Positions 6,635 to 64,000 of a stretch of DNA of 64,000 nt are shown piece by piece. Each line of letters starts with the position of its first letter. Within the stretch, counting starts at the first letter, position 1. The notes beneath the pieces were generated by a model. That model worked only from the letters and a program-made list of their open reading frames with translations, made no database searches and was not told where the DNA came from. The stretch comes from a virus. The DNA lies in the IMG/VR virus record IMGVR_UViG_3300026488_000010; one strand, given 5' to 3'. The translations under genes and the position numbers were made by a program.

Positions 6635-6635
6635 A

Positions 6636-19448: not shown

Positions 19449-19795
19449 TAGTAATCTCCATTTAATTCATCTAAATTATTTTGTATTTCACTATTATTTG
19501 AATCTATTTTTTTCTTAACTGATTGAGCAGCACCATATACACCAGCACCTGCAGTTCCAATCGCACCTGCAATAATTAAAGGTTTTAAAACAGATTCTTG
19601 TAAAATAGGTTTAGGTTTTATATCTTTTAACCCTTTTGTTATTCTACTTGAACCACCATATTGCACTTGAGCTGTAGAACCGGAGGCATTAGAAACACCG
19701 CCAATTCCTCCAGTGATACCTCCAGCACCTGAAAATGCACCATCCTCTAAAATTGTTTTTATCAATTGTTTATTTACTTTAAGTATCATTATCAA
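19448..19795 (-). CDS. Gly/Ala-rich small protein with ILE leader (putative internal protein)
   Basis: MILKVNKQLIKTILE-DGAFSGAGG; second ILQES site. Confidence 0.7.
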   Translation of the reverse strand: MIMILKVNKQLIKTILEDGAFSGAGGITGGIGGVSNASGSTAQVQYGGSSRITKGLKDIKPKPILQESVLKPLIIAGAIGTAGAGVYGAAQSVKKKIDSNNSEIQNNLDELNGDY

Positions 19796-29545: not shown

Positions 29546-30285
29546 TATTTTTCTCCATTTTGTACTATATATTCTTTTAAATTATATTCTATTGAGTCAA
29601 AGTGATCTGCAATGAAATCACCTGACCAATCATGCACTATTTTTATCTTCGCGGATATTGTATCAGCAAATGGTCTAATTCCACCCAACATCGTAGCTGG
29701 AAATTCTAAGAATGCATAACTTGGCCCTTTATCTCCAATAACTGATTGTGACATTACAAGCTCTCCATCAATTCCAAATGATACAGGAGTATCAATCACA
29801 ACAATGTCTCGATACACTTCGAGTTCACCATTACTAGGATTATAATAATAAAATAATTCTAGTTCAAAATTTCCAGCCCAAACATCTTTCTTTACTGATG
29901 TTTGTGTTGGTTGAGGATCACTCATTGGATCAACTACCCCATTATACACTATTGTGAAATCAACATATACTTTAAAAGGTAATGATATAACACCTTCATT
30001 CAATACAGTATCTATAAGGTCCATAGGTATTGCATCAGTTATTCCAAACTTTGGATAAACATTATATCTAAATGATGAATATCTAACCATATCAGTTATA
30101 TCACTATCGATTGTTACAAATGATGTCGGGGCCTCTTTTAATTTCATAAATGTTAGAATACCTTTTGATAAATAACATATCTCTTCAGTATCTGTAGTAT
30201 ATGCTAATTCACCTTCTATTGGTGGATCTAGCTCAAGTTCAGCTTTAAGTTTTCGTCTTAAAATGATTCCAGAATCTGCCATCAT
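29545..30285 (-). CDS. Mtd_N-like domain protein
   Basis: SGIILRRKLKAEL..DPPIEGELAYTTDTEE. Confidence 0.75.
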   Translation of the reverse strand: MMADSGIILRRKLKAELELDPPIEGELAYTTDTEEICYLSKGILTFMKLKEAPTSFVTIDSDITDMVRYSSFRYNVYPKFGITDAIPMDLIDTVLNEGVISLPFKVYVDFTIVYNGVVDPMSDPQPTQTSVKKDVWAGNFELELFYYYNPSNGELEVYRDIVVIDTPVSFGIDGELVMSQSVIGDKGPSYAFLEFPATMLGGIRPFADTISAKIKIVHDWSGDFIADHFDSIEYNLKEYIVQNGEK

Positions 30286-30482
30286 TTACTCCTATTTGCA
30301 TCATGCATAATTGAGTGTAATGGTTTTTTTAATGGATCAAAGTCAACAGCTTCTTTGACATCATCTGCGTGTGAACCGATTGCTGCACCTACTGCTGCTG
30401 CACCCATCCCTGCTGCACCCATCCCTGCGAGAATCTTCATCTCTTCTATAATAAATGATTTATTTATTTTCATATTTTTCAT
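30282..30482 (-). CDS. Leader-bearing Gly/Ala-rich small protein
   Basis: MKINKSFIIEE-MKILAGMGAAGMGAAAVGAAIG. Confidence 0.7.
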   Translation of the reverse strand: MKNMKINKSFIIEEMKILAGMGAAGMGAAAVGAAIGSHADDVKEAVDFDPLKKPLHSIMHDANRSK

Positions 30483-31356: not shown

Positions 31357-31594
31357 AATGCCCATAAGGACTTCGAGTGGAACGGCGAGTTCTATCATTT
31401 GAACGAATAGAACCGACGTTATTATTTAAAGGTTTTTGGCGGTCAGGTTGAGCACCAGCAGTTAATGCTGCTGCACCTCCAATCGCTAACCCACCTGCAC
31501 CTGCACCTGCAATAGCTGCTGTCTTACCATCAACATGATCAATCAACTCGTCAAAGAATTCTAAAATTAATCCTTTATTTATTTTTTCAATCAT
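31355..31594 (-). CDS. Leader-bearing Gly/Ala-rich small protein
   Basis: MIEKINKGLILE...AAIAGAGAGGLAIGGAAALTAG. Confidence 0.75.
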   Translation of the reverse strand: MIEKINKGLILEFFDELIDHVDGKTAAIAGAGAGGLAIGGAAALTAGAQPDRQKPLNNNVGSIRSNDRTRRSTRSPYGH

Positions 31595-32097
31595 TTTAAA
31601 GTGCTTCCCATTCGAGTACTAGGTGATAATACCGAACGAGTGCTGTCAAGCGCGCTTGTTTGTATATTAGCCATACCTTGATTCATTGGTCCAGCAACAA
31701 AAGGATTTAAATAATATTGACCGGGATTGTTCATCTTAACATCTTCGGTACCTTGAGCATATTCTTTTGAGCTTTCAGATGCTGAATCCATTTGAGCATT
31801 CCAAGGTTGACCATTTGGATCAACTTGTACTGTTGCTTCTGTTGGCAACTCTTTTGAATCTTTATGTTTTAATAATTCATAAGGGACTTGGTTATATACT
31901 TGGCCAAGTTTATTACCAATATGAGAGATTGGTCCACCAACCATAGGATTAAATATATACTGTCCAGGATTGCTATCAAGTGTTGCTGAGAGTGCTTGGT
32001 CTCTATTTACAAGAGCTTGTTGACGATTCTGCATAGATGTGTCCCATGCTCCATTAACTGCTTCTAAAATTAAACTCTTATTTATATCATATATCAT
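31591..32097 (-). CDS. Leader-bearing protein with internal NPGQY..NP.V.GP repeat
   Basis: Start reassigned to 32097: MIYDINKSLILE-AVNG. Confidence 0.75.
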   Translation of the reverse strand: MIYDINKSLILEAVNGAWDTSMQNRQQALVNRDQALSATLDSNPGQYIFNPMVGGPISHIGNKLGQVYNQVPYELLKHKDSKELPTEATVQVDPNGQPWNAQMDSASESSKEYAQGTEDVKMNNPGQYYLNPFVAGPMNQGMANIQTSALDSTRSVLSPSTRMGSTLK

Positions 32098-32098
32098 T

Positions 32099-32734
32099 TT
32101 ATTTCCCCTTTTTTGCTCGGACTTTTTTAGCAACATCTATTAATAATTTTGATGCTGAATTTCTTGTAGCTTTAACAGCTTTATCTTTTGCAGCTTTTGC
32201 AGCTTTGGTTGTTTTATCTACATATTTTTCACCATTCTTTGCTAAGTGTAATCCACCAGCAATAGTTGTGGCACTGACAGCTAATGTTTTTGCAGCTGTT
32301 GTTAAACCAGATTCATCTTCATCATCAGAATTGATTTCATCTAAATCTGTCGATTCCCCAAAATAACCTTTAACTGTATCAACTGTATCATTAATTGATT
32401 GAACAGTGTTTCCTAAACCATGACCAACATCATATGCTGCTCTTGGTACTAGTGCAATATTTGGATCAGTCTCAGCATTATATGCTGCCTTGACCGAGTC
32501 CATTGCCGTTCTCGCACCTGCTCCATAATCAACACCTCGTAAATTCGATGTACCAACTCCTGTTAACACCGCAGCATTATTAATAGAACTATTTACAGCT
32601 GATCCAAGATTACCATTATTCGCAGCATATGCTCCAATTCCTGCTAAAGATGCGCCTGCTACATATTTACCTTTATTACCATTAAGATGATTTAACAATC
32701 CTTCTTGTAATAAATAAATCATTTTTTGTTTCAT
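32099..32734 (-). CDS. Leader-bearing Gly/Ala-rich protein
   Basis: MKQKMIYLLQE-GLLNHL..NKGKYVAGASLAGIGAYAA. Confidence 0.75.
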   Translation of the reverse strand: MKQKMIYLLQEGLLNHLNGNKGKYVAGASLAGIGAYAANNGNLGSAVNSSINNAAVLTGVGTSNLRGVDYGAGARTAMDSVKAAYNAETDPNIALVPRAAYDVGHGLGNTVQSINDTVDTVKGYFGESTDLDEINSDDEDESGLTTAAKTLAVSATTIAGGLHLAKNGEKYVDKTTKAAKAAKDKAVKATRNSASKLLIDVAKKVRAKKGK

Positions 32735-32742
32735 TTTAATTC

Positions 32743-33255
32743 CTAAAATTTATTTTTTATATAATCAGTGTATGGTGTAACATGTGCAGCTAAGTTATCA
32801 TAAGCTAAACCTGCAGATACAATTGGATGTCTAACTGTAAAGTTTGTTTGATCTGGTTCTTGATCCATTGATGTTACTTTTTTAATAACATTTGATGCTG
32901 TGTCTTGTGCATGTGATAAAGCGTTTTCTTTTTGTATCGAGTGCTGATAATCATAAGTGTCGCCATTATGATCCCAATTTGATATTAAGTTATCAGGTTT
33001 AGAAAAAACTTCATTCGCTGCTTGTAACTTTGCTGTTATTGCATTAGCAGTTGATGCATTATGTAAATCGGCTGATGCTTCACCTGCAAAATCTTGAACT
33101 GCATCTTGTGCTTCAACACCTAATAAACCTTTACCTGCTGCGTATGTTCCAGCAGTTCCAGCAGCCGCTAAACCAGCAACATACTTACCATAATTGTTTT
33201 TTAGGTGATCAACAATCCCCTCTTCTATAATATGATTTTTAATATCAATTATCAT
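32743..33255 (-). CDS. Leader-bearing Gly/Ala-rich protein
   Basis: MIIDIKNHIIEE-GIVDHLKNNYGKYVAGLAAAGTAG. Confidence 0.75.
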   Translation of the reverse strand: MIIDIKNHIIEEGIVDHLKNNYGKYVAGLAAAGTAGTYAAGKGLLGVEAQDAVQDFAGEASADLHNASTANAITAKLQAANEVFSKPDNLISNWDHNGDTYDYQHSIQKENALSHAQDTASNVIKKVTSMDQEPDQTNFTVRHPIVSAGLAYDNLAAHVTPYTDYIKNKF

Positions 33256-33641
33256 TTTATTTCCTTATTATGTTTTCTATAGTAATTATTTGCACCTGCT
33301 CTAAATGCTGGAGCTGCTAATAATCCACCTAATGATGCGCCAATCGCGCCTGAAGCTGCTGGAACTACAAAATTATTATTTAGAGTATCAAATGAATCAT
33401 CACCGATATCAATATCATCATATTGTGATTTAACAATACCTAACCCAGTACCTACGGCAGCACCTATAGCAGCTGGAGCGGTACTCGCAGTTAAACCTGC
33501 AACATAAGTATTATTTGCTAAACCCAATGCTGTCATATTTTCTTTATCTCTTTTCGCCTCATAACTTTTATGTTTATCACGAATTCTATCTTTAATGATC
33601 GTTGCAAACTCTTCTATGATTTCAAATTTATTTAATTTCAT
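33252..33641 (-). CDS. Leader-bearing glycine-zipper protein
   Basis: Start reassigned to 33641: MKLNKFEIIEE; AAIGAAVGTGLG and GAIGASLGGLL segments. Confidence 0.75.
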   Translation of the reverse strand: MKLNKFEIIEEFATIIKDRIRDKHKSYEAKRDKENMTALGLANNTYVAGLTASTAPAAIGAAVGTGLGIVKSQYDDIDIGDDSFDTLNNNFVVPAASGAIGASLGGLLAAPAFRAGANNYYRKHNKEIK

Positions 33642-33642
33642 A

Positions 33643-34212
33643 TTATGCTCCATAACTTTTCATAAATTCTAATGTATCTGAATCTTTTATAGTATTACTT
33701 AAATTATCATGAGTTGTATCATGTGCTGTTGATTGTGCTGTTGATTGTGCTGTTGACTGAGATGTTGAATATGCTGGTGTATTTGCATCATCATTCGTTT
33801 TTCTACTAAAATCTGGTATCTTTTCTTTTAACTCATTAAAAACTTTTATTACTGTTGATTGATCTTCTGGACCTTGTATATCTTTTAAATGATCATTTTC
33901 AACAGCTGATGAGTTAGAATCTAGAGGTGAATCTTTTGTTTCACCTAATGTTTTAATACCATCACCATTAGCATCTGTACCATATGTTGAATTAAGTTTT
34001 ATCATTGAATCTTTTGACCAATCACCTGCTTTTTCAACGAAACCTTTTAAAGCTGAACCACCTCTATCAACAGCATCCTTAGCTGTTGGGCCAAAAGCAT
34101 TAGCATGTGCCAATGCTATACCACCTGCAGCCATTAAACCTTTTCCCCAATTATCTTTCACACTTTGTAAAACACCTTCTTGAATAAGGTGTGCTTTTAT
34201 ATCTATTATCAT
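33643..34212 (-). CDS. Leader-bearing Gly/Ala-rich protein
   Basis: MIIDIKAHLIQE-GVLQSVKDNWGKGLMAAGG. Confidence 0.75.
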   Translation of the reverse strand: MIIDIKAHLIQEGVLQSVKDNWGKGLMAAGGIALAHANAFGPTAKDAVDRGGSALKGFVEKAGDWSKDSMIKLNSTYGTDANGDGIKTLGETKDSPLDSNSSAVENDHLKDIQGPEDQSTVIKVFNELKEKIPDFSRKTNDDANTPAYSTSQSTAQSTAQSTAHDTTHDNLSNTIKDSDTLEFMKSYGA

Positions 34213-34311
34213 ATTGGTTTCCTCAAAATTTCTTATATAAATATCCTAAAATTCCTATATAAGAATTTCTATTAATTTGTTAGTATCCGGAGATACTAAC
34301 ATACTAACATA

Positions 34312-34848
34312 CTACCCTCTCATTCGTTGACCGAACTCAGTACCTTTTCTGATACCATACTCCGCCGCATTGTTAAGATTATTTAGACGAACAGCAGCCG
34401 CCCCTTTTCTTAACATAGAATCATCTTGAGATGTTGTATTGTATCCATGCTTAGCAAGACGTTGTTTAATCGGATTGATACTTGAACCATGCAATAATCT
34501 TTTTGCTGCGAATGATTGCCCAATCGTTCCAAGACCGGCCCCAATTGCTGCACCTGTCATATCATATTCATCATCATTAACTTCTTGATCAATATCATCT
34601 TGTTTCATTACCGCTTTATCAGCATATGAAAGATCACCATCACCATGTACAGAATTACCTGCTGCACCTCCAACTAACATACCGGCAGTTGGAGCCATAG
34701 ATGCAGCAGCCGCATTATTAAATGTTTTTGATGCTGAACTATGGTTTAATGCTCTAGTTGAACGTCTTGCAAATTTTTCAGCTTTTTCTGGAGAATCTAT
34801 TCTAAATGCTTCTTCTAAAAGAGCGCTTTTATCTATTGTATATATCAT
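34312..34848 (-). CDS. Leader-bearing glycine-zipper protein
   Basis: MIYTIDKSALLEE; GMLVGGAAG and GAAIGAGLGTIG. Confidence 0.75.
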   Translation of the reverse strand: MIYTIDKSALLEEAFRIDSPEKAEKFARRSTRALNHSSASKTFNNAAAASMAPTAGMLVGGAAGNSVHGDGDLSYADKAVMKQDDIDQEVNDDEYDMTGAAIGAGLGTIGQSFAAKRLLHGSSINPIKQRLAKHGYNTTSQDDSMLRKGAAAVRLNNLNNAAEYGIRKGTEFGQRMRG

Positions 34849-34888
34849 TTTATTTCCTATTTGATTATTTAATTATATGAATTTTAGC

Positions 34889-34921
34889 ACAAGAATAATC
34901 ATAGAGATAAACTCCATGATT
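34889..34921 (-). terminator. Hairpin + TTCTTGT terminator-like element
   Basis: Minus-strand stem AATCATGGAG/CTCTATGATT (one G-U pair), then TTCTTGTGCTAAA. Confidence 0.6.
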
Positions 34922-34948
34922 AAATTATGTGTAATTATGCGTAATTAT

Positions 34949-35608
34949 CTATCTACTTCTACCAAGATTTCCATAACCCGTAGGTCTAGAAACATTATTT
35001 GAAGGATGTGATAAATTTTGTTTGAATGCGGATCCACCACTTTTCAGAGCAGAGCCAAAATTCTTAACACCGTGACCAGTTGCAGCAACGCCACTTTTAG
35101 CAGCACCATATGCAGCATGTGCACCTTGTTTTACTTGAGAAGCTGTTTTACCAACACCATTTCCTGCAACATGTGCAGCAATACCCCCAGCAGCAGCTAA
35201 TCCAAGCCCACCTAAGATACCAATACCTGAATCATCATCAGCTGCATCATCAATAGGTGCAGCTGCGTCAACTGACGCATGCTGAGCATCATGTTCAACC
35301 TTTTGACGAACATCAGATACTGGAGCAGATTCTTTAGCTTGAAACATTTTGTCTCCACCATAGAAATGACCAGCAGCCGTTGCTTCGTTTCCGATTTTAG
35401 AACCAGCAGCTGAAGCAGCTCCTCGAACAGCATCGTAACTTCCATCAACAGCATTCTTAACACCTGAACCAAATGTTCCAGCATGTGCTAATCCAAGTCC
35501 AGCGCCAACAGCACCGACTTTCATACCATTTCTTGCCATCTGAGACATCTCTTCTTCTAATAGAGAAAGAGATTCTAAGATGATACTTTTATTTACATCA
35601 AAAATCAT
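34949..35608 (-). CDS. Leader-bearing Gly/Ala-rich protein
   Basis: MIFDVNKSIILE-SLSLLEEE...GAVGAGLGLAHAGTFG. Confidence 0.75.
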   Translation of the reverse strand: MIFDVNKSIILESLSLLEEEMSQMARNGMKVGAVGAGLGLAHAGTFGSGVKNAVDGSYDAVRGAASAAGSKIGNEATAAGHFYGGDKMFQAKESAPVSDVRQKVEHDAQHASVDAAAPIDDAADDDSGIGILGGLGLAAAGGIAAHVAGNGVGKTASQVKQGAHAAYGAAKSGVAATGHGVKNFGSALKSGGSAFKQNLSHPSNNVSRPTGYGNLGRSR

Positions 35609-35617
35609 ATTTGATCC

Positions 35618-36193
35618 TTAACGTGTTTGAGATTGAGGTCGAATAGGTGCACGATTTCTAAATTGTTGCATTCTACGTTTCAAAGTTTGTCCAGCAGCAG
35701 GAATTGCACGTTGTGCAATCATACCTGCTCCAACACCACCTGCTAGTGCACCTGCTCCAATAGCAGCAGCAGTTCCTGGATTGGCACCAATAACATTCCC
35801 AATAGAAGCAGTTTGACCCAAATTAAGCTCAGGATTGTAACCTTGAGAATATCCTTGCTGCATTGAGCTATTAATAACTTCGCCTGTATCATCATAATCC
35901 AAATCCATTGAACCATCTTCCATGTCGCCTGTTGCTAAACCAGCAACGCCTGCAACACCATGAGCAAGACCTTGAGCGCCACCAGCAACGTGATCAGCCC
36001 AAGATTCTTGTAAAAGATTTTGAACAGCTACGATTGTACCTTCTTCAACTAACATTTTACGAATTTGCATAATACTTTCATTGATAAGGATTTTACCTTG
36101 TAAAACAGTCTTTTCATCAAGACCATCGGACTCCTCTAAGAGTCCAAGATTGTATTGATTACGAGTGTTTTCTAATACTAAATCTAATTTCAT
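35618..36193 (-). CDS. MKLDL-family protein with Gly/Ala-rich C-terminus
   Basis: N-domain shared with 21753 and 36193. Confidence 0.8.
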   Translation of the reverse strand: MKLDLVLENTRNQYNLGLLEESDGLDEKTVLQGKILINESIMQIRKMLVEEGTIVAVQNLLQESWADHVAGGAQGLAHGVAGVAGLATGDMEDGSMDLDYDDTGEVINSSMQQGYSQGYNPELNLGQTASIGNVIGANPGTAAAIGAGALAGGVGAGMIAQRAIPAAGQTLKRRMQQFRNRAPIRPQSQTR

Positions 36194-36834
36194 TAGTCAT
36201 CTCCTAGTGCTGCAGCGGCAGCTCCACCAGCAGCTAATAGTGCGGCGGCAGCTCCACCTTTCTTAAGAAGAGATTTATCTTTCTTAGAACCAGTTGTTGC
36301 AGGTGTTTTATTACCAGCTTTTACAGGTGCTCCAGCTTTAGGTTCTGTTTTAGCAGAAGCCTTGTCATGTTTCTTTTGAGAAACTAATGCTTTTGATGCT
36401 TTAGACTTTTCTTTCTTAGCAACATTAGCAACCACAACTGCATGTTTCTTAGCTTTAACTTGGTCATCACGCTTTGCAATTTGCTTTTGAGCATTTTGTT
36501 TAGCAGCAACAGCCTTCTCAGCATCTTCTGCTTTCTTAGTACGCATTGCTTTTGCTTCTGCTTTCTTAGCAGCTTTCTCAGCGTTACGTTTAACTGTACG
36601 ATCAAAATTTGACTCTTCAATAACAGCATATGTCCATGCTTCTTCTAAAACTTGTTGAACAGCACTCATAGTACCTTCTTCAACTAACATTTTACGAATT
36701 TGCATAGTTGATTCGTTGATAAGAATCTTACCACGAAGCAACTCTGTTTCTGACATATTTTCTGATTCTTCAAGAAGTCCAAGATTGTAGCGATTACGAG
36801 TGTTTTCTAATACTAAATCTAACTTCATAATCAA
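36193..36834 (-). CDS. MKLDL-family protein with histone-H1-like Lys/Ala-rich C-terminus
   Basis: Shared N-domain; AEKAAKKAEAKA...GAAAALLAAGGAAAAALG. Confidence 0.8.
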   Translation of the reverse strand: MIMKLDLVLENTRNRYNLGLLEESENMSETELLRGKILINESTMQIRKMLVEEGTMSAVQQVLEEAWTYAVIEESNFDRTVKRNAEKAAKKAEAKAMRTKKAEDAEKAVAAKQNAQKQIAKRDDQVKAKKHAVVVANVAKKEKSKASKALVSQKKHDKASAKTEPKAGAPVKAGNKTPATTGSKKDKSLLKKGGAAAALLAAGGAAAAALGDD

Positions 36835-42211: not shown

Positions 42212-43804
42212 TTATGCTGATATAGTCATCTTACTATATTTAAAATCATGAAGATCAGATATACCATATTTTAAACTTATAGTATCTTTAGTTGCATTAT
42301 CAAAATTTTCAAGCTTAATTTTATTCAGTGCTTTCAATTGTTGTACAAATTTATCTTCAACATCAACGAATGAATTACTTGCAGATAGTTTTGTATTTTT
42401 CAATTTAAGAGATGACACACTAAAGTGTGTATAAAATCTTACAAGATTTGGTGCTACTTTTTGAATAGGCTTTGGAAATAATTGATTAATCAAAATGTAA
42501 TTATTTCCTCCAAGTTTTATATATTTTCCTTGAACGGGAACAGGAATTCTAAAACTTATAGTATATGGTTTATTAGTAGTTGCTCCAAAATCTTTGTGTT
42601 TGACTTTGATTTGAAACTCTTTATATCTATTTTTATTATCATCAACTATTTTTTTCTGAACAGATACGATCTCAATATCAACATCTGGATCATTACCTAA
42701 TGTGCTATGTATCAGATCTTCGATTAAATCATCTATATTCTCAGTTAATTCTAATCGCTGCTTATCGTAATTTCCAACCTCGTCCATTCCAACAATCTTT
42801 TGATCATTAAATGCACCAGTCTGTTTGATATTTAAAGATATATTACCATTGTATTTTCTATTAATATTTTTAGATAATTTTTCAACCGCTTCAGTGGTTG
42901 AACCTTTTTGATATAATGCTTGTAATTTCTCTTCAAATGTTCCAGTCAAAGGTAAAGTATTCAGATGTTCTTTAATCTTCTTTTGAATATCTTTAAGTTC
43001 TGAATCTTTAGCTTTAGATGATGATGTTACTAGATCATCAATTAATTCTTTTACTGATGTTTCTTTATTTGATGCTATTTCAGATTCTTCTTCTTCTGAT
43101 ACAGCATTTTTAATATCTTTATCTTTGGTCATATTTTTCAAAACCATATTTAAAATATTTCTTTGAAATTTTAATTCATCTTCTGAAGAAGATGAAGGAA
43201 TAGCTATAGGAAAATATTTCCCATCAATAAAATAAATAATACCATCTAAACGTGTTTTAATTTTTCCAGCGTTAAGTTTATTTATATAATTTAATAGTTG
43301 AAGCACATCAGCATTTGCGGCATCTAAATTACTTTCTGAACTGATAAATAAATAATTCTTTCTTTCAGGATCATAATCTTTAATTACCGATTCTATTAAT
43401 TTTAATAATTCAAAAAATACTTTTTTTTGAGATCTAGACTTAGCTGTCGATAATACGTCTGATATCATACCAGACATATCAAAAACATTAGTTCTCTCAG
43501 GCATTGTTTGTTTTGATGGTACTCTAGTATAATGAAAGTTTGGCATATCTTTTTTAAGTTCTAAAAAGTATTTTTGTGAACTTAACTTTTTCCCTAAGAA
43601 ATTTGAAATAATTCCAGGTACTGTAATTTGGTGATAATAACCTTTGATTTGAGTACTTAAGTATTTTTGTAACGCTTTATGTGCAACCCCCTGTGAAGAT
43701 GCTTCAGGAGCAAAGAAAATATTTGCTCCTACCTTTTCATCATCCCAAAAGCGAACATTAGGCAAAGGTTGTTTATTCTTTATAAATTTAGTAACTGATA
43801 CCAT
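42212..43804 (-). CDS. RNA polymerase beta N-terminal part fused to an extra N-terminal region
   Basis: C-terminal SFRIPVPVQGKYIKLGGNNYILINQL matches the beta N-terminal IP.MT..GTFIING.ERV.VSQL motif; adjacent to the main beta gene. Confidence 0.75.
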   Translation of the reverse strand: MVSVTKFIKNKQPLPNVRFWDDEKVGANIFFAPEASSQGVAHKALQKYLSTQIKGYYHQITVPGIISNFLGKKLSSQKYFLELKKDMPNFHYTRVPSKQTMPERTNVFDMSGMISDVLSTAKSRSQKKVFFELLKLIESVIKDYDPERKNYLFISSESNLDAANADVLQLLNYINKLNAGKIKTRLDGIIYFIDGKYFPIAIPSSSSEDELKFQRNILNMVLKNMTKDKDIKNAVSEEEESEIASNKETSVKELIDDLVTSSSKAKDSELKDIQKKIKEHLNTLPLTGTFEEKLQALYQKGSTTEAVEKLSKNINRKYNGNISLNIKQTGAFNDQKIVGMDEVGNYDKQRLELTENIDDLIEDLIHSTLGNDPDVDIEIVSVQKKIVDDNKNRYKEFQIKVKHKDFGATTNKPYTISFRIPVPVQGKYIKLGGNNYILINQLFPKPIQKVAPNLVRFYTHFSVSSLKLKNTKLSASNSFVDVEDKFVQQLKALNKIKLENFDNATKDTISLKYGISDLHDFKYSKMTISA

Positions 43805-43813
43805 TATAATTCC

Positions 43814-43857
43814 TTTAGTATATCTTTAGTATATCTTTAGTATATCTTTAGTATATC
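43814..43857. repeat. 11-bp tandem repeat TTTAGTATATC x4
   Basis: Read directly in the 5' UTR of 43804. Confidence 0.9.
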
Positions 43858-43920
43858 TTATTAAGTATTTGTTTACTTAACACTTTTAGTTCATTGTGTT
43901 TTTTATGTCTGAAATCAAGC

Positions 43921-46871: not shown

Positions 46872-47327
46872 TTATAATTGAGGAGTATATAATTCAAAGT
46901 GAGGCAAATCATTAAAAGATTGATCATCAAATCTATCATCAGAGTCCCAATCCAATCCAAAACGGACTTTATGTGTAATTAATCCTTCTTCAAACATCTG
47001 AGAACTGATCATACGAACCATACCCATTAAAAAATAGAATCTATTTTTATCAGCAATTGCTCCTGAGAAGGCATTTGTTCCTTTTTTGTACGGCATTATA
47101 TCAACAGCCATTGATACACCATCACCTCTATCCTGATGTCTTGATTTAATATCAACACCATTTATTTTTGATTTACCATCATTAAACAATTGTAATTGTC
47201 TTTCATCTGAACGTAATCCTTCTAATACACTAAAGTCATAATATTTAATAACTTCAGATAATACCATCTGAATGTCTGGATGACATGTATCGAGTTGTTC
47301 CTTTGATTTTCTTCCGAATGAGTACAT
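46872..47327 (-). CDS. Endolysin, peptidase M15 (L-Ala-D-Glu peptidase-like)
   Basis: Start at 47327 (AGGAGG SD); EGLRSDERQ..LF..GKS, SRHQ, AVDI, FGLDWD, DLPHFEL. Confidence 0.9.
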   Translation of the reverse strand: MYSFGRKSKEQLDTCHPDIQMVLSEVIKYYDFSVLEGLRSDERQLQLFNDGKSKINGVDIKSRHQDRGDGVSMAVDIMPYKKGTNAFSGAIADKNRFYFLMGMVRMISSQMFEEGLITHKVRFGLDWDSDDRFDDQSFNDLPHFELYTPQL

Positions 47328-47731
47328 ATTGTACCTCCTATTTTTATAAGGATTTGTTGGACACATTTCTATATTAACTTTAGAAACTCTAGAAACTTTA
47401 GAAACTCTGGGAAATACAAATACGTAGTATAGAAATCAATATAGTAATAAGAATATAATATAGGATTATATTCGCAATGAAACAAAGAAGAGAGTTATAG
47501 GAACTCCTAAAAACCTAAAAGTAAAAAACCGACGATGAATGGTATATAAAAAATCAATAGAGGTAAGCGAAAGCACTCAAAACATAAAACATAAAATGCA
47601 CAAAAAGTGTGGCAGTACAAAAGTACATAAGACCGGAAAATTGAACGAAGCAGTTAAGAGCTGCATATAAAAATTCCCAACTGGGGGAAATAAAATATAC
47701 CAGATTTTTAATTATTATAAAAGGATCAGAA

Positions 47732-48794: not shown

Positions 48795-48869
48795 TGGCGC
48801 TCCGTAGGAGAATTGAACTCCTGATACTACCGTGACAGGGTAGTGTACTAACCGCTATACTAACGGAGC
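48795..48869 (-). tRNA. tRNA-Asp(GUC)
   Basis: Cloverleaf, loop CT-GTC-AC, encoded CCA. Confidence 0.95.
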
Positions 48870-48870
48870 T

Positions 48871-48947
48871 TGGTCGTCCTTCGAAGACTTGAACTTCGGA
48901 CCTCACCCTTATCAGGGGCGCACTCTAACCAACTGAGCTAAAGGACG
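48871..48947 (-). tRNA. tRNA-Ile(GAU)
   Basis: Loop CT-GAT-AA, encoded CCA. Confidence 0.95.
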
Positions 48948-48963
48948 ATTAATGTTTTAATGG

Positions 48964-49039
48964 TGGCTCCGGAGGCAGAATTCGAATCTGCAATCTTCAA
49001 GTTAACAGCTTGCTACATCACCAGTTATGTTACTCCGGA
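48964..49039 (-). tRNA. tRNA-Asn(GUU)
   Basis: Loop CT-GTT-AA, encoded CCA. Confidence 0.95.
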
Positions 49040-49066
49040 ATATTTTTTGTAAGTATAAATACTTAG

Positions 49067-49139
49067 ATGAGGAAGAGGGTTTCGAACCCCCAACATTCGC
49101 CACCAAAAGGCGATGCTCTACCAGTTGAGCTATTCCTCA
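49067..49139 (-). tRNA. tRNA-Gln(UUG), CCA not encoded
   Basis: Loop TT-TTG-GT, U1-A72 pair, T-loop GGTTCGAAA. Confidence 0.9.
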
Positions 49140-49150
49140 TCTAAATATTC

Positions 49151-49296
49151 AATAAGAACACATATGACCGCGAATAAGCGTCTGAGGATTCGAACCTCAG
49201 TAACCTAAAGCATTCACTGCCTTTCGCTAATCACCTTTTCGGTTTGCAACCCGTATAGTGTGTCGGCCGACAATTCGCGGTCATATGTATTCTTAT
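49151..49296 (-). ncRNA. tRNA-like RNA enclosed in a 24-bp terminal stem
   Basis: Terminal inverted repeat 49152-49175/49273-49296 with one U-G wobble in minus sense; canonical T-arm TGAGG-TTCGAAT-CCTCA. Confidence 0.65.
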
Positions 49297-49492
49297 GTAT
49301 TCTTATTAAATTTAAACAATAGAACCTTTCATCCAAAACGGGCGAACACTTAGTTCATCATAAACTTTATCCAATTCTTTTTGAGTATTTGCTAAACTTG
49401 AAGCGACTATCAATTCTCTAAAAGACATGTTTTTTAATTCTTTTTCTTTTTTCAATTTCTTTTCTTTTCTTTTCTTTTCTTTTTTTAATTTA

Positions 49493-49567
49493 TGGTGACC
49501 CTGCAGAGATTTGAACTCTGGTGACAGGCATGAAAAGCCTGGATCCTAACCACTAGATGACAGGGTC
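49493..49567 (-). tRNA. tRNA-Glu(UUC)
   Basis: Loop TT-TTC-AT, encoded CCA. Confidence 0.95.
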
Positions 49568-49568
49568 G

Positions 49569-49660
49569 TGGAGGAGAATGAGAGATTCGAACTCTCGGAC
49601 GATCAGAAACCGTCAACAGATTTCAAGTCTGCCGCCATCGACCAACTCGGCCAATTCTCC
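49569..49660 (-). tRNA. tRNA-Ser(UGA)
   Basis: Loop CT-TGA-AA, long variable arm, CCA. Confidence 0.95.
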
Positions 49661-49683
49661 ATATTATTATAACTTCTTTGTTG

Positions 49684-49760
49684 TGGTCGCATATCGAAGA
49701 CTTGAACTTCGGACCTCACCCTTATGAGGGGCACGCTCTAACCAACTGAGCTAATATGCG
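49684..49760 (-). tRNA. tRNA-CAU (Ile2 or elongator Met)
   Basis: Loop CT-CAT-AA; body nearly identical to tRNA-Ile(GAU); C1-G72 so not initiator. Confidence 0.9.
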
Positions 49761-49781
49761 GTAATATGCGATGGTGCCTGA

Positions 49782-49870
49782 TGGTGGATAGTGAGAGATT
49801 TGAACTCTCGGTACTCGAAAGTACGCTTCCTTAGCAGGGAAGTACCATAAGCCAGCTCGGCCAACTATCC
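49782..49870 (-). tRNA. tRNA-Ser(GCU)
   Basis: Loop CT-GCT-AA, long variable arm, CCA. Confidence 0.95.
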
Positions 49871-53291: not shown

Positions 53292-54203
53292 TTAATTTGA
53301 AACTAAGGAATATCCATATGCATTTGAGAACTCTTTGGGGTTCTTATTCCATACTACATTCTTCATACCAATAAACCCTTCTAGTAGATAAGAACCTCCA
53401 CCTGCAATTAGCACAGTGCTAGCAAATTGTAAAGTTTTCTTTTCAGATACTAAAACCGAATTGATAAGTTTTTGTACGAATTTGCCTTTAAGATCTTCAA
53501 TTTTTGCTGGGATTGCTTCTTGAATTTCTCCACCAAGAGTTAATTCACCGTCCATGAAGATCTTTAATGCTTCTTGTTCAGAAAAAGGCATACCATATGC
53601 ACTTTCTAAAAAGTTTGAAAATGTTTTCATTATACTTACAACACCATGACCAGGAAACCCTTTCATGCGGGTTTGCATTGCTTGGCCTCTTTCAAAATAT
53701 AAAAAGTTAATAGTTCTGTAACCAATATCAATTACACATGCATCTTTAGGATGTTCTCCAGGTGCATCATCTTTTTGAGTAATGTATGCATAATATGCAC
53801 CTGCACCTTGAGGAGCAACAACCTCACAAGCAGTTGCAATTGTTTCATCATTTACTTTAAGAAACTGCAATCGTTCTTGAAATTCTGCACGTTTAGACCA
53901 ATCAGTTAATGCTAATCCAGTTATTAACTTTACGTCACCAGCTATTCCCAATTTCTTTAAAATATGAAATACCATTAGTGGTCCAAATTTATCTAGGAAT
54001 TTATAATCAGTTGTTGTAAAAGCTTCATCAGTTGCTGCTTCACCTACATAATATTGCTCACCCTCAAAATCATAAACACTTGATTGGCCAAATTCAATAC
54101 CCGCATCGTTTGCGAATGATATAGCGGTTGGAACTTTATAAAATTCACCATTAAACATAATCTTCGCTGCTGAGTATCCTAAATCTATAATAATTTTATT
54201 CAT
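53292..54203 (-). CDS. parM: ParM/StbA-family actin-like ATPase
   Basis: IIIDLGYSAAK (phosphate 1), YYVGEAA, PQGAGA, VIDIGYRTIN (phosphate 2), LIAGGGS, NAYGY. Confidence 0.85.
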   Translation of the reverse strand: MNKIIIDLGYSAAKIMFNGEFYKVPTAISFANDAGIEFGQSSVYDFEGEQYYVGEAATDEAFTTTDYKFLDKFGPLMVFHILKKLGIAGDVKLITGLALTDWSKRAEFQERLQFLKVNDETIATACEVVAPQGAGAYYAYITQKDDAPGEHPKDACVIDIGYRTINFLYFERGQAMQTRMKGFPGHGVVSIMKTFSNFLESAYGMPFSEQEALKIFMDGELTLGGEIQEAIPAKIEDLKGKFVQKLINSVLVSEKKTLQFASTVLIAGGGSYLLEGFIGMKNVVWNKNPKEFSNAYGYSLVSN

Positions 54204-55084: not shown

Positions 55085-57748
55085 TTAACCAAAATCAAAC
55101 CCTTCGTAACTAAATTCACTTGGATATTGTGTCTTAATATTGTTGACAAGTATATGTAACATATCTGGGAAGAAATTCATAAACTGTTGTGTAAACATGA
55201 AGTGCGCTTGAATGTCTTGATTCTTAGATTTGTCAATTCTTGTAATTCGTCCAAGTGATTGAATTACGGGAACCTTCCCAACAATAAGAGAACCGAAGAT
55301 GATTGCAGATAAATCTGATTTATCAAAACCTGCAGATAATAATTTAAAATTTGATACTAATGTATCCTTCGCTTTCATTATCTCACGTTCAGTACGATTA
55401 TCAGCAATTGTCCAAGATGTTTTTAAATCCAGGGTTGGAATAGTTGCTTGAACCTTAGCGATATCTTTTAATATTGGTTTAGTCAAACTATATTTATCAT
55501 CCTCTCCTTTGAGCAATTTTAATGCGACACATTTCTTTCTTTTAGGAAATACTTCAAAATAATGATCATAGTATGATTGTACTTGTTCAGGCGTTAAATA
55601 TTCTTTTGATTCATCTAATTTCTTTTTAGTTTCACCAATTATGACACCAACGTCGATTCCTCGTCTTTCTAATACAGCAGCCATTCTACGAACCATTTTA
55701 TTAGTTGCAAATAATATTGCTGTTTTATGACCATCTTTTATTCTATATTCAACCCAGTTAGCAATCCATTCAAAATAAACTTCTTTAGTTTCTAATATCA
55801 TATTATATGTTGCCATGAAACGAACATAATCAGTTCTTGAAAAAACTAATCTTTGAATTTCTTTCTCTGTGAACTCGATTATCCCATTATGTAAATTAAT
55901 TTTGGGTACAAGATTTTGATGATCTGATTTATATAATATACCACCAGTGTTATTCATAAATAGGAATTCATTGATACCTACTCTATATGGTGTAGCAGTC
56001 ATTGATAATACATTATCTGTTGAAAACATACAAGCGGTTTTAGAATAACCATCTGATGCATTACCAACATGCGCTTCATCGTATATAACTAAGCCAAAAG
56101 CGGAATACAATTCTACTAATATATTAATATCAATATTTTTTAATTGTGCATATAATGATTGAATTTTGGCGACAACTATATCTTTTTCAAATACACATTT
56201 TTTAATTAATGCATTTATATCTGAACCTTGAGCAATACCTATATCATCCTTCTCAAGATTTGTAAATTCAATAATTGATTCTACAAATTGTCCTTCTAAT
56301 ATATCATTAGGTACAATAATTAAAGATTTTGTTCCTACTAATTCAACAGTCTTTATAGCTACTATCGAATTATGAGTCACTGTAAAATCTCGAGTAATAT
56401 ATAAGTGATCTTTCGCGTCTATTGTAATACATCTAGAATTTTCTTGATAATCTAATTTTTCAATATTAACTATTGTTTTTGTATTTTTTTTAGGGTTGAT
56501 ATTAATCATAAATTCATATGCTTCATGACCTATACATATCTCACCTTTATGTTTAAACTTTGGTTCAGGTTTTATACGAATCTCATTCGCATAAATACCT
56601 AACGATCTGACAATATGTTGTAATTGATTAATTAATTTTTTTGATGAGCTATATAAAATCTTTGAATTTTTAGATTGATGATATGAATCAGTTAATAAAT
56701 ATGCTCTTAAAAATTCTTTACGTTCGTCTACTGATGCGAAAATATAATCATCAGGTATGGATTTATCGATTGATAATTTATCCATTAATTTGTACGATTT
56801 TAATAACTGTTTTAATTTTAAACTCGTTATTCTATATGAGTATTTATTAATTATAGAATATGTTGCATCAGAATCAAATTCTAAAATTTGTGAAAAAACC
56901 TCTTTAAACACATCACCTCTTAAATCTGCAAATGTTATTGCATCTCCTCTAAAACTACCATCTGCAATAAGTGCGCCCATTGCAAAAGATTTTAGTTTTA
57001 AATTTCTTTTTGTGTATTGAACTTCGTCGCATAAATTAATTTTATATTTATATTCTTGTTGGTAAGTTCCATATTTTGTTTTATATCGACCACTTTTATA
57101 ATTTTTTAAAATTTTAGATGTATCTATAGTTTCCCAACCTTTATTTTTATTGGTAATTTTATGTCTATTTTTAACGGTCCATAAGTGATCAATACCACAT
57201 TTTGTATATGTTCCATCTTGGAACGTTATTTTATAAACATCGCTTATTCCATGTTCATGAATATGTGTGACTTTTGTTGGTGTTCCATTTTTTCCAACAA
57301 TAAATGAACCTATTTTGAGTTCTCCCATTGTGACCCAACCATTAGGTGTAAGGATCGGTTCGCTGTATGGTTGTTGCTTACCGAAACCAGGTTGAGCAAC
57401 TATAAGACCATTTATAGAACCTTTTAACATAGCATCTTTAATCGCTTTAAACACTGGTATTTGCTCTTTTCTCGCTTCGATTGATGTTACCATCTTCTTT
57501 AACTTTACTGGAGCAATTTGCGCATCTTCTTTAGCTAAGTTATGTCGGCGTAAGATTTCAGCACCAACTTTATCAATCGCTAACTCACTATGATTATATT
57601 GCACAAAGAATTTTGGCAATACTACACCATAACCAACATCGAATACACCTAAGTCGCGGTCATCATATGGTATTGGTTTTTCATATTTATTCCATATACT
57701 GGACTGGGATTTTAAATATTCCCATTCAGTTTTGTAAATTATATCCAC
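55085..57748 (-). CDS. SF2 helicase (UvsW-like) containing an intein
   Basis: Walker A QPGFGK|S, DEAH, MTAT, SAGFD, QSLGRITR. Confidence 0.9.
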   Translation of the reverse strand: MDIIYKTEWEYLKSQSSIWNKYEKPIPYDDRDLGVFDVGYGVVLPKFFVQYNHSELAIDKVGAEILRRHNLAKEDAQIAPVKLKKMVTSIEARKEQIPVFKAIKDAMLKGSINGLIVAQPGFGKQQPYSEPILTPNGWVTMGELKIGSFIVGKNGTPTKVTHIHEHGISDVYKITFQDGTYTKCGIDHLWTVKNRHKITNKNKGWETIDTSKILKNYKSGRYKTKYGTYQQEYKYKINLCDEVQYTKRNLKLKSFAMGALIADGSFRGDAITFADLRGDVFKEVFSQILEFDSDATYSIINKYSYRITSLKLKQLLKSYKLMDKLSIDKSIPDDYIFASVDERKEFLRAYLLTDSYHQSKNSKILYSSSKKLINQLQHIVRSLGIYANEIRIKPEPKFKHKGEICIGHEAYEFMININPKKNTKTIVNIEKLDYQENSRCITIDAKDHLYITRDFTVTHNSIVAIKTVELVGTKSLIIVPNDILEGQFVESIIEFTNLEKDDIGIAQGSDINALIKKCVFEKDIVVAKIQSLYAQLKNIDINILVELYSAFGLVIYDEAHVGNASDGYSKTACMFSTDNVLSMTATPYRVGINEFLFMNNTGGILYKSDHQNLVPKINLHNGIIEFTEKEIQRLVFSRTDYVRFMATYNMILETKEVYFEWIANWVEYRIKDGHKTAILFATNKMVRRMAAVLERRGIDVGVIIGETKKKLDESKEYLTPEQVQSYYDHYFEVFPKRKKCVALKLLKGEDDKYSLTKPILKDIAKVQATIPTLDLKTSWTIADNRTEREIMKAKDTLVSNFKLLSAGFDKSDLSAIIFGSLIVGKVPVIQSLGRITRIDKSKNQDIQAHFMFTQQFMNFFPDMLHILVNNIKTQYPSEFSYEGFDFG
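56369..57376 (-). mobile_element. 336-aa intein with LAGLIDADG domain; class 3 signature, Gln1
   Basis: QQPYSEPILTPNGW...DHLW...GALIADG...RCITID...VTHN|S, inserted in Walker A. Confidence 0.9.
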
Positions 57749-58053: not shown

Positions 58054-58088
58054 ACAAGAATATTCTTAGGCAATATGCCTAAGAATAT
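58054..58088 (-). terminator. Hairpin + TTCTTGT terminator-like element
   Basis: Stem ATATTCTTAGGCA/TGCCTAAGAATAT, then TCTTGTCCTTGAT. Confidence 0.7.
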
Positions 58089-59486: not shown

Positions 59487-59723
59487 TTATAATTTATAAC
59501 CCATTTTCTTTAAAAAAATGTCCGATGTTCTTTCATGAGAAGCTTTGAGATCATTACCTGACCCTCGAACCTTAGTAACCGTAAACGGTTTATTTGATTC
59601 ATTTGGTTTAGTGAACTTCTTTTCATGATAAGCTTTTAAAGCATCCATACGTCTCTGAACAATTGCTGGATCAGCATTATATGTTGCTTCTAAGATTTCT
59701 GCTTTATCTAATGTAATAATCAT
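59487..59723 (-). CDS. Leader-bearing small basic protein
   Basis: MIITLDKAEILE-ATYN. Confidence 0.7.
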   Translation of the reverse strand: MIITLDKAEILEATYNADPAIVQRRMDALKAYHEKKFTKPNESNKPFTVTKVRGSGNDLKASHERTSDIFLKKMGYKL

Positions 59724-60238
59724 TTTGATTCCTTGTCTTTATCTTTTTTTGAATCTTCTACCCAATTGAGATTTAAAGGACTTATACGTTCTTCTACAAT
59801 TTCTAAAGTCTCACCAATATAGGGTGCGCCAATTTCATCATCAACTGTGAAATCTCCACAATCATACATTAATGTAATATGTGACGTATATTCTGGGTAA
59901 TCTGTAGTTGCTCCGAGCTTGATTGCTTTTGCAAATTGTTCTTGACAGAACTTACATTCTAATACAACATGTAGATTTTTACCCTCATCTGTTTTAAAAT
60001 GTCCAAATGATTTTATCTTTATTCTCTTTGATAATTTGTTCTTGGCAGTACCTTTAACTTGTTTCGTTCCTTTAGATGTTTTTAAATATGGAACTGGTTT
60101 CTTTGAGTACGTTATTGTCGTGTGATATGCATCAGTAAAATCTTTTTTCAATCCAAAACTTTTAATAATATCATCAAGTTTTTTATTAGAGTTTTCACTG
60201 AATATTACATCCATATATGTTCCTTTTGTTTCTGCCAT
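59720..60238 (-). CDS. acb1: Acb1-like (T4 gp57B) 2H phosphoesterase, anti-CBASS
   Basis: Start at 60238; YHTTITYSK.PVPY, TDEG..L.VVL, LGATTDYPEYTSHITLMY, SPLNLNW. Confidence 0.85.
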   Translation of the reverse strand: MAETKGTYMDVIFSENSNKKLDDIIKSFGLKKDFTDAYHTTITYSKKPVPYLKTSKGTKQVKGTAKNKLSKRIKIKSFGHFKTDEGKNLHVVLECKFCQEQFAKAIKLGATTDYPEYTSHITLMYDCGDFTVDDEIGAPYIGETLEIVEERISPLNLNWVEDSKKDKDKESK

Positions 60239-60239
60239 T

Positions 60240-60416
60240 TTAAAATCTCCTTCCATTGTTTATATTTTCTTTAATTTTATAACACCTTTTAGATGCATGC
60301 CATAAACCATCATGTTGACCACATTCAGGACAAGTGTAATCATCTTTTTTTGTAAGTAATGCTCCAATGATAATGAATGATGCCGTAAATATTAATATTA
60401 TATATATAATTTCCAT
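60240..60416 (-). CDS. 58-aa TM plus CxxC protein
   Basis: Hand-translated MEIIYIILIFTASFIIIGALLTKKDDYTCPECGQH... Confidence 0.6.
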   Translation of the reverse strand: MEIIYIILIFTASFIIIGALLTKKDDYTCPECGQHDGLWHASKRCYKIKENINNGRRF

Positions 60417-60417
60417 T

Positions 60418-60783
60418 TTAAATCTTTTTAGTTGCTGATTTTAAAGCTGCTGCTGATAGACCCATCTTTTGAATAAATCCTCTTCTTGATACATTTTTGG
60501 TCTCATCATTATTTGATGTTGTATGTTTGTATATTTTTGAAGCAGTGATGCCTGATGCAACTTTTTTCTTAGCATGTTTATAATCACTGACTATTGATCC
60601 AGGATTTTGCAGCTTACCAATAACACTTGTTGCACCTGCAGTAGCAGCAGCGGTTAGTCCCATTAATCCTAAGAAGTTTCGTCTAGAAACATCTTCTTCC
60701 AATAAATAAAATATCTCATTTTCTAAAAAATATTGTACATTATTTTCTTCTAAATATTCTATACCTTGTTGTATTGTATACAT
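60418..60783 (-). CDS. Leader-bearing protein with two twin-arginine (Tat)-like motifs
   Basis: LLEE-DVSRRNFLGLMGLTAAATAGA and NVSRRGFIQKMGLSAAAL. Confidence 0.75.
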   Translation of the reverse strand: MYTIQQGIEYLEENNVQYFLENEIFYLLEEDVSRRNFLGLMGLTAAATAGATSVIGKLQNPGSIVSDYKHAKKKVASGITASKIYKHTTSNNDETKNVSRRGFIQKMGLSAAALKSATKKI

Positions 60784-60843
60784 ATAAGTCCTTATATACC
60801 ATCTATAATCTTAGAGAGTTTTTCTTTGAGTACTTGAGGTGTA

Positions 60844-61029
60844 TCATGATGGACAGCCTCGTATTAGATGATGAGCTGGAGGCATATTAAATTGTCCATG
60901 AATTGGGCAAATAATACACACTTTAGTTAACCTATTAACGTAGTCAACTTTTGAATAATCATATTTATCATTATATCTTATATTAGATTTATGGATAAAT
61001 AAATTCTTAACCTTATCTGTTTTTTTCAT
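60844..61029 (-). pseudogene. Truncated homing-endonuclease Zn-ribbon repeat (DUF723-like)
   Basis: KYDYSKVDYVN..TKVCIICPIHGQF...HL.RGCPS*, with no nuclease domain following. Confidence 0.6.
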
Positions 61030-61143
61030 ATTATATCCAATAACTTGAAATGTTATCAGAGCTACCAGTATATGCCCCATACACAACCATTGATGATATA
61101 ATTATTACTAAAAATATTTTTAATTTTAAACTCATAATATAAC

Positions 61144-63046: not shown

Positions 63047-63063
63047 TTTAATATCCTATGTTT

Positions 63064-63100
63064 TTATAATTATTTGTTAATCGTTAACAAATAATTATAA
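63064..63100. promoter_or_regulatory. Back-to-back divergent AACAAATAATTA promoter candidates
   Basis: 17-bp inverted repeat; each arm is about 21-22 nt from a divergent start codon (63046 and 63119). Confidence 0.65.
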
Positions 63101-63340: not shown

Positions 63341-63414
63341 AGTTGATACTCTATTCTATTCTTGTGGCTGAATTCAAGGACAAGAAAATATCTTAGACAT
63401 ATGTCTAAGATATT
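63331..63414. terminator. Two convergent hairpin + TTCTTGT elements
   Basis: Plus-strand stem 63331-63360 + TTCTTGTGGCTGAA; minus-strand stem 63387-63414 + TTCTTGTCCTTGAA. Confidence 0.8.
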
Positions 63415-63628: not shown

Positions 63629-64000
63629 CTATATAGTGAAACCAGTATTTACTAACAGTGTTTCAGTATATACTATTTTAGGAGCGGGTAGATCACGTTT
63701 TCTTGAAAGCTCGCCTGATGTTTCAACAACTGCTGCTTCTACTTCAGATGTTACATCTGTTCTAGGACCTTCAGCATGGGTTGGAGTTCCAATCATAGTC
63801 GCAACTTCATCTGGCACTCTATCAGATTTAACTGTTTTAACAGTTGCTGGTTCTTGTTTACGTTGTTGGACTTCAGGTGTCTCAACTACTTCTTCAACAG
63901 TCTCAACAGGTGTCTCAACTACTTCTTCAACAGTCTCAACAGGTGTCTCAACTACTTCTTCAACAGTCTCAACAGGTGTCTCAACTACTTCTTCAACAGT
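63629..64000 (-). CDS. 5'-truncated protein with (TVEEVVETPVE)n acidic repeat
   Basis: Frame open to the window edge; 33-bp unit starting at 63874, 63907, 63940, 63973. Confidence 0.75.
   Translation of the reverse strand, partial: TVEEVVETPVETVEEVVETPVETVEEVVETPVETVEEVVETPEVQQRKQEPATVKTVKSDRVPDEVATMIGTPTHAEGPRTDVTSEVEAAVVETSGELSRKRDLPAPKIVYTETLLVNTGFTI

Follow-up and report, generated by a model that had tools for sequence, protein, structure and literature searches.

Internal proteins of phage T4 are synthesized with an acidic pro-piece and yield a basic product that is injected (PMC9026906). Those studied as IPI, IPII, IPIII and Alt carry a capsid-targeting sequence, are cut by gp21 after Leu/Ile-x-Glu and enter the cell with the DNA; none of the T4 internal proteins is known to carry an export signal. 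The ejection or inner-body proteins of phiKZ, 201phi2-1 and SPN3US also have propeptides, which are removed by an S80 protease. Bacterial Tat signals such as those of formate dehydrogenase, NapA and TorA combine an S-R-R-x-F-L motif with a weakly hydrophobic h-region and an AxA site, and in class V Tat substrates (FecR) the motif lies behind an N-terminal cytoplasmic segment, with folded domains on both sides. The mini-proteins of the TIGR02811 (formate_TAT) and NF038009 families, which are cellular, have little beyond a single N-terminal Tat signal and a conserved C-terminal motif of their own. A search of the open-access literature for work linking 'prohead protease' with 'twin-arginine' found no relevant paper.

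The window analysed here, a 64,000-nt stretch of viral DNA, comes from a metagenomic contig of 286,633 bp (ENA ERZ27262635), 6 kb of which are also present in a Logan assembly of SRR7968109; the two assemblies, possibly from the same sample, are identical over 5971 bp. The phage is AT-rich (31% GC), carries almost all genes on the minus strand, and encodes a T4-like large terminase, a phiKZ-type multisubunit RNA polymerase and eight tRNAs. One of its genes specifies a 121-aa protein in which an acidic segment ending in LLEE precedes a Tat module, a basic linker and a second, C-terminal RR module (Table 1). We propose that this product is a small, basic, non-globular 'address-only' protein, probably expressed late, of a T4/phiKZ-like giant phage. 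The parts are already known, and what would be new is the combination of a Tat signal with a head-protease-type pro-piece; this protein is distinctive in having no cargo and in its second RR module.

Compared with the T4 internal proteins, the 121-aa protein likewise has a mature part that is small and basic, preceded by a short acidic pro-piece with a Leu-x-Glu-type end; its gene occupies a hypervariable position, and the phage has a gp21/gp175-like protease. It differs in that its N-terminus lacks the leader shared among proteins of this phage, and its packaging and cleavage are proposed from sequence. The phiKZ-type systems likewise come from giant phages that encode a multisubunit RNA polymerase and a head protease specific for Glu, and their propeptides, too, offer several possible cut sites; these propeptides, however, mostly exceed 100 residues, have Ser/Ala/Gly-x-Glu sites and lack sequence similarity to the 121-aa protein. 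Module 1 shares the motif, the weakly hydrophobic h-region and the AxA site of bacterial Tat signals, but the protein departs from them in the 30 acidic residues in front, the missing folded cargo and the second, C-terminal copy with its interrupted h-region. The placement of the motif behind an N-terminal segment recalls FecR, without either of its folded domains, and the scarcity of sequence beyond the signal recalls the TIGR02811 and NF038009 mini-proteins, from which the protein is set apart by their cellular origin, single N-terminal signal and C-terminal motif.

Table 1. Features of the 121-aa gene, its operon and related elements (window coordinates unless a relative or contig section is named)
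Feature	Position	Strand	Remarks
Gene for the 121-aa ORFan protein	60418..60783	(-)	Stop codon 60418-60420; translation exactly as described
Shine-Dalgarno AAGGA	60789..60793	(-)	5 nt upstream of ATG
Acidic leader, residues 1-30	60694..60783	(-)	Net -8 over residues 1-31
LLEE, residues 27-30, candidate head-protease site	60694..60705	(-)	Directly N-terminal of Tat n-region
Tat module 1, residues 31-56	60616..60693	(-)	TIGR01409 match; hydropathy
Basic low-complexity linker, residues 57-96	60496..60615	(-)	Net +5, two Y-K-H repeats
Tat-like module 2, residues 97-121	60421..60495	(-)	C-terminal end of the protein
Candidate late promoter (TAACAAATAAT...) and operon leader	63053..63080	(-)	Nearly the same sequence before capsid, head-protease and tail-fibre-like genes
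Terminator-like hairpin closing the preceding transcription unit	63387..63414	(-)	
Terminator-like hairpin, operon end	58060..58088	(-)	
HNH/DUF723 homing endonuclease remnant	60844..61086	(-)	Directly upstream of the 121-aa gene; absent from the closest relative
58-aa membrane-helix and zinc-ribbon ORF	60240..60416	(-)	Starts 1 nt past the 121-aa stop; positional counterpart in L003
Acb1 (anti-CBASS phosphodiesterase) homologue	59720..60256	(-)	Conserved neighbour; Pfam PF23474, 9.7e-27
78-aa protein, same operon	59487..59723	(-)	Genuine capsid-targeting-like leader, 23 bits; conserved in L003
Eight tRNA genes	48795-49870		Asp, Ile, Asn, Gln, Glu, Ser, Met, Ser
Leader-bearing proteins, window	31591-36834, 30283-30482, 5972-6700, 19448-19795, 59487-59723		
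Leader-bearing proteins, relatives	L003:5695-5925, L005:1439-2281, L005:2262-3167, L005:5464-6174, L007:11834-12139		
Candidate late promoters (G)TAACAAATA(A/C)T	63071, 43866, 37487, 31280/31296, 22408, 11410, 2029; L093:18321, L093:19241		

Judged by its ribosome-binding site, tight packing (1 nt separates its stop from the following start), phage-typical GC3 (0.156) and two modules kept as protein, the reading frame is on sequence grounds a real, lineage-specific gene. A TTG at Leu28 was considered as the main start, which would give a classical N-terminal Tat signal, and was rejected for its weak upstream GAG as compared with the AAGGA preceding the ATG. Translation of 60418-60783 bears out the acidic 30-aa leader ending in LLEE that the first-pass annotation had described, with a net charge of -8 over residues 1-31. 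This leader contains three aromatic/Leu-Leu-Glu-type repeats (YLEE, FLEN and LLEE), the last followed by D31 and standing three residues before S-R-R; the mature part after LLEE is basic (+12). The same annotation had seen no folded passenger domain, a view consistent with an AlphaFold2 single-sequence model of mean pLDDT 40 throughout, too poor for a fold search, and an ESM Atlas model of pLDDT 0.44 lacking a confident fold, although a poor single-sequence model is no proof of disorder. No Pfam domain, FecR included, scored above threshold in the protein.

Homology searches characterize the protein as an ORFan. No homologue was found in INPHARED phages (tblastn with E up to 10; megablast of 9 kb), in IMG/VR or in the PDB, the phage as a whole having no close relative among isolated phages or in IMG/VR, and among 5.8 billion clustered proteins only the protein itself was recovered. 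A HMMER search of 1.84 billion representative proteins returned the query and three others, all of them repeat or low-complexity proteins, and ESM Atlas feature matches (0.79-0.82) were at chance level, though several were Tat-signal fragments. The gene lies between a conserved gene for a protein of 110/118 residues and that for Acb1. In the closest relative, L003, gene order is the same but a CheY-like receiver-domain protein (L003:4591-4989) stands in this place, and in L005 the two flanking genes abut and the slot is empty; because one relative fills it differently and the other leaves it empty, the 121-aa gene occupies a variable slot. Homologues of the neighbouring SF2 helicase occur in relatives of the phage at 89%, 72% and 61% identity. 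This helicase (55085-57748; 887 residues) contains a LAGLIDADG intein, as do those of other relatives (P0017, 895 residues), and the 89%-identical P0006 (553 residues) is intein-free. An actin-like ParM/Alp protein (53292-54203; ALP_N, MreB-like_C; phrog_691 partition) lies beside the helicase in all relatives.

The distribution of LLEE across the phage offers a clue to the function of the motif. It occurs seven times in the 38,057 residues of forward ORFs, against 1.0 expected, and every copy lies within the first 70 residues of its protein: in the capsid protein (residues 67-70), the head protease (17-20), two scaffold-like proteins, two array proteins and the 121-aa protein. For the broader motif [LIV]LEE the count is 14 of 17 within this region, which holds 27% of all residues, and for the control EELL it is one of four; leaders in the relative L005 likewise end in LLEE. 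The head genes themselves were found by walking along the same contig. The head maturation protease (263 residues, L093:18393-19184) matches phrog_207 at 4e-23, with sub-threshold Pfam scores for both S80 (19.2 bits) and S77 (18.2 bits), and adjoins, directly upstream, the major capsid protein (L093:19280-20857; together contig positions 106508-108972), which matches PDB 7x30, 'Major structural protein ORF12', at 6e-15. The capsid-protein LLEE is close in position to the end of the 65-residue propeptide of T4 gp23 (PMC5694885), and the protease LLEE is comparable to the N-terminal cut site of T4 gp21 (PMC9026906). Because all seven copies are N-terminal, those of the capsid protein and protease included, LLEE is very probably the propeptide boundary of this lineage and a plausible head-protease site. 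Chance alone would yield roughly one LLEE in this amount of sequence, and the Leu/Glu-rich composition of the 121-aa leader raises the local chance of its own copy to about 4%.

Entry into the head is a separate matter. At least 12 small proteins of the phage that are otherwise unrelated begin with a conserved leader of 13 residues (Met, Ile/Lys, x, x, Ile/Leu, Asn/Asp, Lys, x, x, Ile/Leu, Leu, Glu, then a small or acidic residue); it is also present on proteins of three relatives and looks like a capsid-targeting sequence. A model built from seven clear members finds more of them here and in L003, L005 and L007. Many leader-bearing proteins have an Ala/Gly-rich, signal-peptide-like stretch straight after the cut motif, and the Ala/Gly-rich stretches behind the leaders of the array proteins at 32099-35608 are similar to that of the 121-aa protein. 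The N-terminus of the 121-aa protein (first 13-18 residues) gave no match to the leader model, scoring 2.9 bits at rank 45 of 561 and, in a wider set, 0.9 bits at rank 376 of 1314, and the protein was absent from the top 30 for a model of capsid/scaffold/protease-type leaders. Comparison with the head-array paralogue family (31591-35608) by hhalign gave a probability of 0.1%, and BLASTP against array members reached at best E = 0.027 with one and nothing with another. With three models and one profile-profile comparison all negative, membership of the leader or array family was rejected. Entry of the protein into the head is not supported, because its N-terminus lacks a capsid-targeting-like leader; a genuine one is carried by the 78-aa protein encoded two genes downstream. 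The earlier proposal that the head protease cuts after LLEE is partly supported: LLEE is a plausible site and an S77/S80-like protease is encoded, but the shared leader is missing. We consider it quite possible, at somewhat less than even weight, that the 121-aa protein is a head-protease substrate.

Expression of the gene can be read from its operon. The motif (G)TAACAAATA(A/C)T precedes the capsid, protease, tail-fibre-like and neck genes as well as the first gene of the 121-aa operon (63071), and such candidate late promoters sit 20-70 nt upstream of structural-gene starts. We take the AACA core to resemble the late promoter of the Bacillus giant phage AR9. The leader sequence downstream of the motif is near-identical before the capsid gene, the protease gene and the 121-aa operon, and no terminator was found between the candidate promoter and the 121-aa gene. 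Because motif and leader are common to the capsid and protease genes, the arrangement argues for co-expression of the 121-aa gene with head assembly genes. Terminator-like hairpins at 63387-63414, at 58060-58088 and near 2040-2060 are each followed by the same TTCTTGTCCT(T) box and mark off separate transcription units. Elsewhere, at 43810-43866, an 11-nt unit (AGATATACTAA) occurs four times in a row between the promoter motif and a gene for a 530-residue protein (42212-43804).

The Tat assignment was examined module by module. In module 1, D-V-S-R-R-N-F-L (RR at residues 34-35) leads into a Gly/Ala/Thr-rich h-region; the 21 residues after the motif are uncharged with a mean Kyte-Doolittle value of 1.23, and an AxA site is present as A49-G50-A51 (60631-60639). 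Gly, Ala, Ser and Thr make up 13 of 19 h-region residues, and over 19 residues the hydropathy peaks at only 1.56. NCBIfam TIGR01409 matches the protein at 27.9 bits, above its cut-off of 16.7, in two stretches. These features uphold the first-pass claim of a Tat signal (SRRNFL) right behind LLEE. Pfam TAT_signal (PF10518) was sub-threshold (16.3 vs 22.7), and the second-best match, TIGR02811 of the formate-dehydrogenase-region Tat family, scored 25.8 bits vs a cut-off of 48.45, and its match is confined to the signal region (positions 7-32 of the 66 in the profile). NF038009 gave a weak match over the signal region (18.3 vs 100). The pattern [ST]RR.F[LIVM] occurs twice in the six frames of the window, both times in this ORF, with a chance expectation of 1.3e-4 per 121 residues, and no other RR motif with an uncharged stretch was found in a further 45 kb of the phage (~109 kb in all). 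A feature of N-terminal signals is missing, namely the N-terminal position and net-positive n-region, as the RR of module 1 lies behind the acidic segment; module 1 would have that feature only after a cut at LLEE. Taken on its sequence, module 1 probably engages the host Tat system.

Module 2 is a different case. It was annotated as a second Tat signal at the C-terminus, and its motif, N-V-S-R-R-G-F-I, is indeed Tat-like; the last 30 residues alone scored 15.4 bits (E = 0.018) against TIGR01409, just below the cut-off. Its h-region, however, is broken by Lys106 and Lys115, which leave 8 hydrophobic residues and no c-region before the protein ends, and for this reason module 2, as its sequence reads, cannot serve as a signal peptide in its present form. 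The two modules align over 26 residues with a score of 61, against a mean of 21.6 and a maximum of 50 in 2000 shuffles. They share 13 identical residues, and only 5 of these 13 use the same codon, which points to an old duplication or to convergence under selection on the peptide. Judged from these codons, the likeness is kept at the level of protein, not DNA, and since this likeness persists although most codons differ, the frame appears to be translated.

The proposed host interaction presupposes a Tat system. An overlapping pair at 6902-7652, one member i-spanin-like (N-terminal membrane helix and coiled coil) and the other o-spanin-like (lipobox L-S-A-C), suggests a Gram-negative host. The only host clue of its kind is a Campylobacterota MAG label on one related contig, and the host Tat system is an assumption. 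A scan of genome contigs with the helicase returned only remote SF2 helicases, epimerase homologues carried no informative names, and no TatA-like ORF was found in about 165 kb of the phage and its relatives. At the window edge (63629-64000), an open-ended ORF is built of 11-residue units in tandem that are rich in Val, Glu and Thr.

These observations can be assembled into a route from capsid to host envelope. The promoter motif in common suggests that the 121-aa protein would be made together with the head proteins. Its acidic 30-residue pro-region would then enter the prohead, where, as the distribution of the motif suggests, a Glu-specific head protease could cut at LLEE. By analogy with the T4 internal proteins, the cut product would be injected with the DNA, and its now free N-terminal Tat signal could, by its sequence match, dock on the host TatBC receptor. 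The short hydrophilic tail might be exported or anchored; alternatively, the C-terminal RR module might hold a further site and stall the receptor. Since hydrophilic peptides that are short and unstructured can be transported by Tat, the tail might serve as its passenger. In favour of the full chain (packaged, cut, injected, docked on TatBC) we count a real gene and a Tat signal, the LLEE distribution, the head protease, the candidate late promoter and the charge pattern, together with the genuine capsid-targeting-like leader on the 78-aa protein of the same operon. Against it we count an N-terminus that fits neither leader class, the lack of array kinship, a possible chance LLEE, a module 2 that is no signal in its present form, the homing-endonuclease/Acb1 setting in a variable slot, the sub-threshold Pfam Tat model and the assumed host Tat system. 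On this balance the full chain is the likeliest of the readings weighed here, though at clearly less than even odds. In principle a Tat signal need not be unmasked, as the internal signals of class V substrates show (FecR; PMC13673990). The stronger version, in which a two-headed cargo-less peptide is packed, unmasked in the head and injected to occupy or stall TatBC, is very improbable, and a jamming of TatBC or of chaperones by this protein, as first envisaged, is pure conjecture.

The main rival is a protein that acts without being packaged. The same Tat evidence could describe a product made in the infected cell and directed straight to the host Tat translocase by an internal or long-n-region signal, its acidic 30 residues staying cytoplasmic or leaving with the signal peptide; it would end as a small, basic, periplasmic or membrane-anchored protein with a role, for example, in the exclusion of other phages, in lysis timing or in remodelling of the envelope. 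Class V substrates such as FecR are an established precedent, their uncleaved internal Tat signal following a cytoplasmic N-terminal part (PMC13673990), and both the missing capsid-targeting-like leader and the variable accessory slot beside Acb1 sit well with this explanation. Tat n-regions, however, are normally net positive (PMC13673990), the reverse of the -8 here, and the folded N- or C-terminal domain of FecR is absent. Direct targeting also leaves unexplained why a propeptide-boundary motif stands 3 residues before S-R-R and why a second, C-terminal RR module is kept up, and we consider it rather unlikely. A membrane-active small protein independent of Tat, either SAR/holin-type or an Ala/Gly helix like those of the array, with the arginines as a positive anchor, is unlikely. 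The small-residue-rich h-region of low hydropathy and the comparable stretches of the array proteins would suit such a peptide. A highly charged basic C-terminus, moreover, is typical of holins. Yet the full S-R-R-x-F-[LI] persists in both modules despite differing synonymous sites, the curated Tat model TIGR01409 is passed, no PHROG holin or lysis match was obtained, and the endolysin (46872-47366) is 13 kb distant.

The two modules without cargo, the second at a C-terminus where it is unable to be a signal, could instead belong to a cytoplasmic mimic of Tat signals that soaks up TatBC, TorD/DmsD/NapD-type chaperones or SlyD and so disturbs redox-enzyme biogenesis. The affinity of SlyD and of dedicated chaperones for Tat signals is indeed sub-micromolar, and phage PhiX174 already makes use of SlyD (PMC13673990); TIGR02811, the second-best match, would be in keeping with such a role, but its score is far under the cut-off, and the mimic would have neither a known partner nor an evident gain for the phage, so that we find it distinctly improbable. 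Least credible of all, to the point of being highly improbable, is a young or decaying functionless ORF brought in by the homing endonuclease. An ORFan beside an HNH remnant and absent from relatives invites that explanation, and two assemblies identical over their shared sequence offer no polymorphism from which to read selection; against it stand the good ribosome-binding site, the stop placed 1 nt from the next start, the phage-typical codon usage and two modules that are alike as protein while their codons have diverged.

Should the motifs prove inert, the gene would be an ordinary phage ORFan. If the two-step route through capsid and Tat is true, proteins injected by giant phages could reach the envelope of the host or its export machinery within the first seconds of infection, ahead of all phage gene expression, and this 121-residue cargo-less gene would be the smallest natural test object, with leader, cut site and RR modules separable. 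If the two-headed inhibitor reading is true, the protein would be the first case of a phage product that inhibits or hijacks the Tat pathway and would embody a minimal two-step address code, 'into the capsid, then to the host export machine'. In a host of the Campylobacterota-type chemolithotroph kind, where Tat carries much of the respiratory enzyme set, such interference would hit energy metabolism directly.
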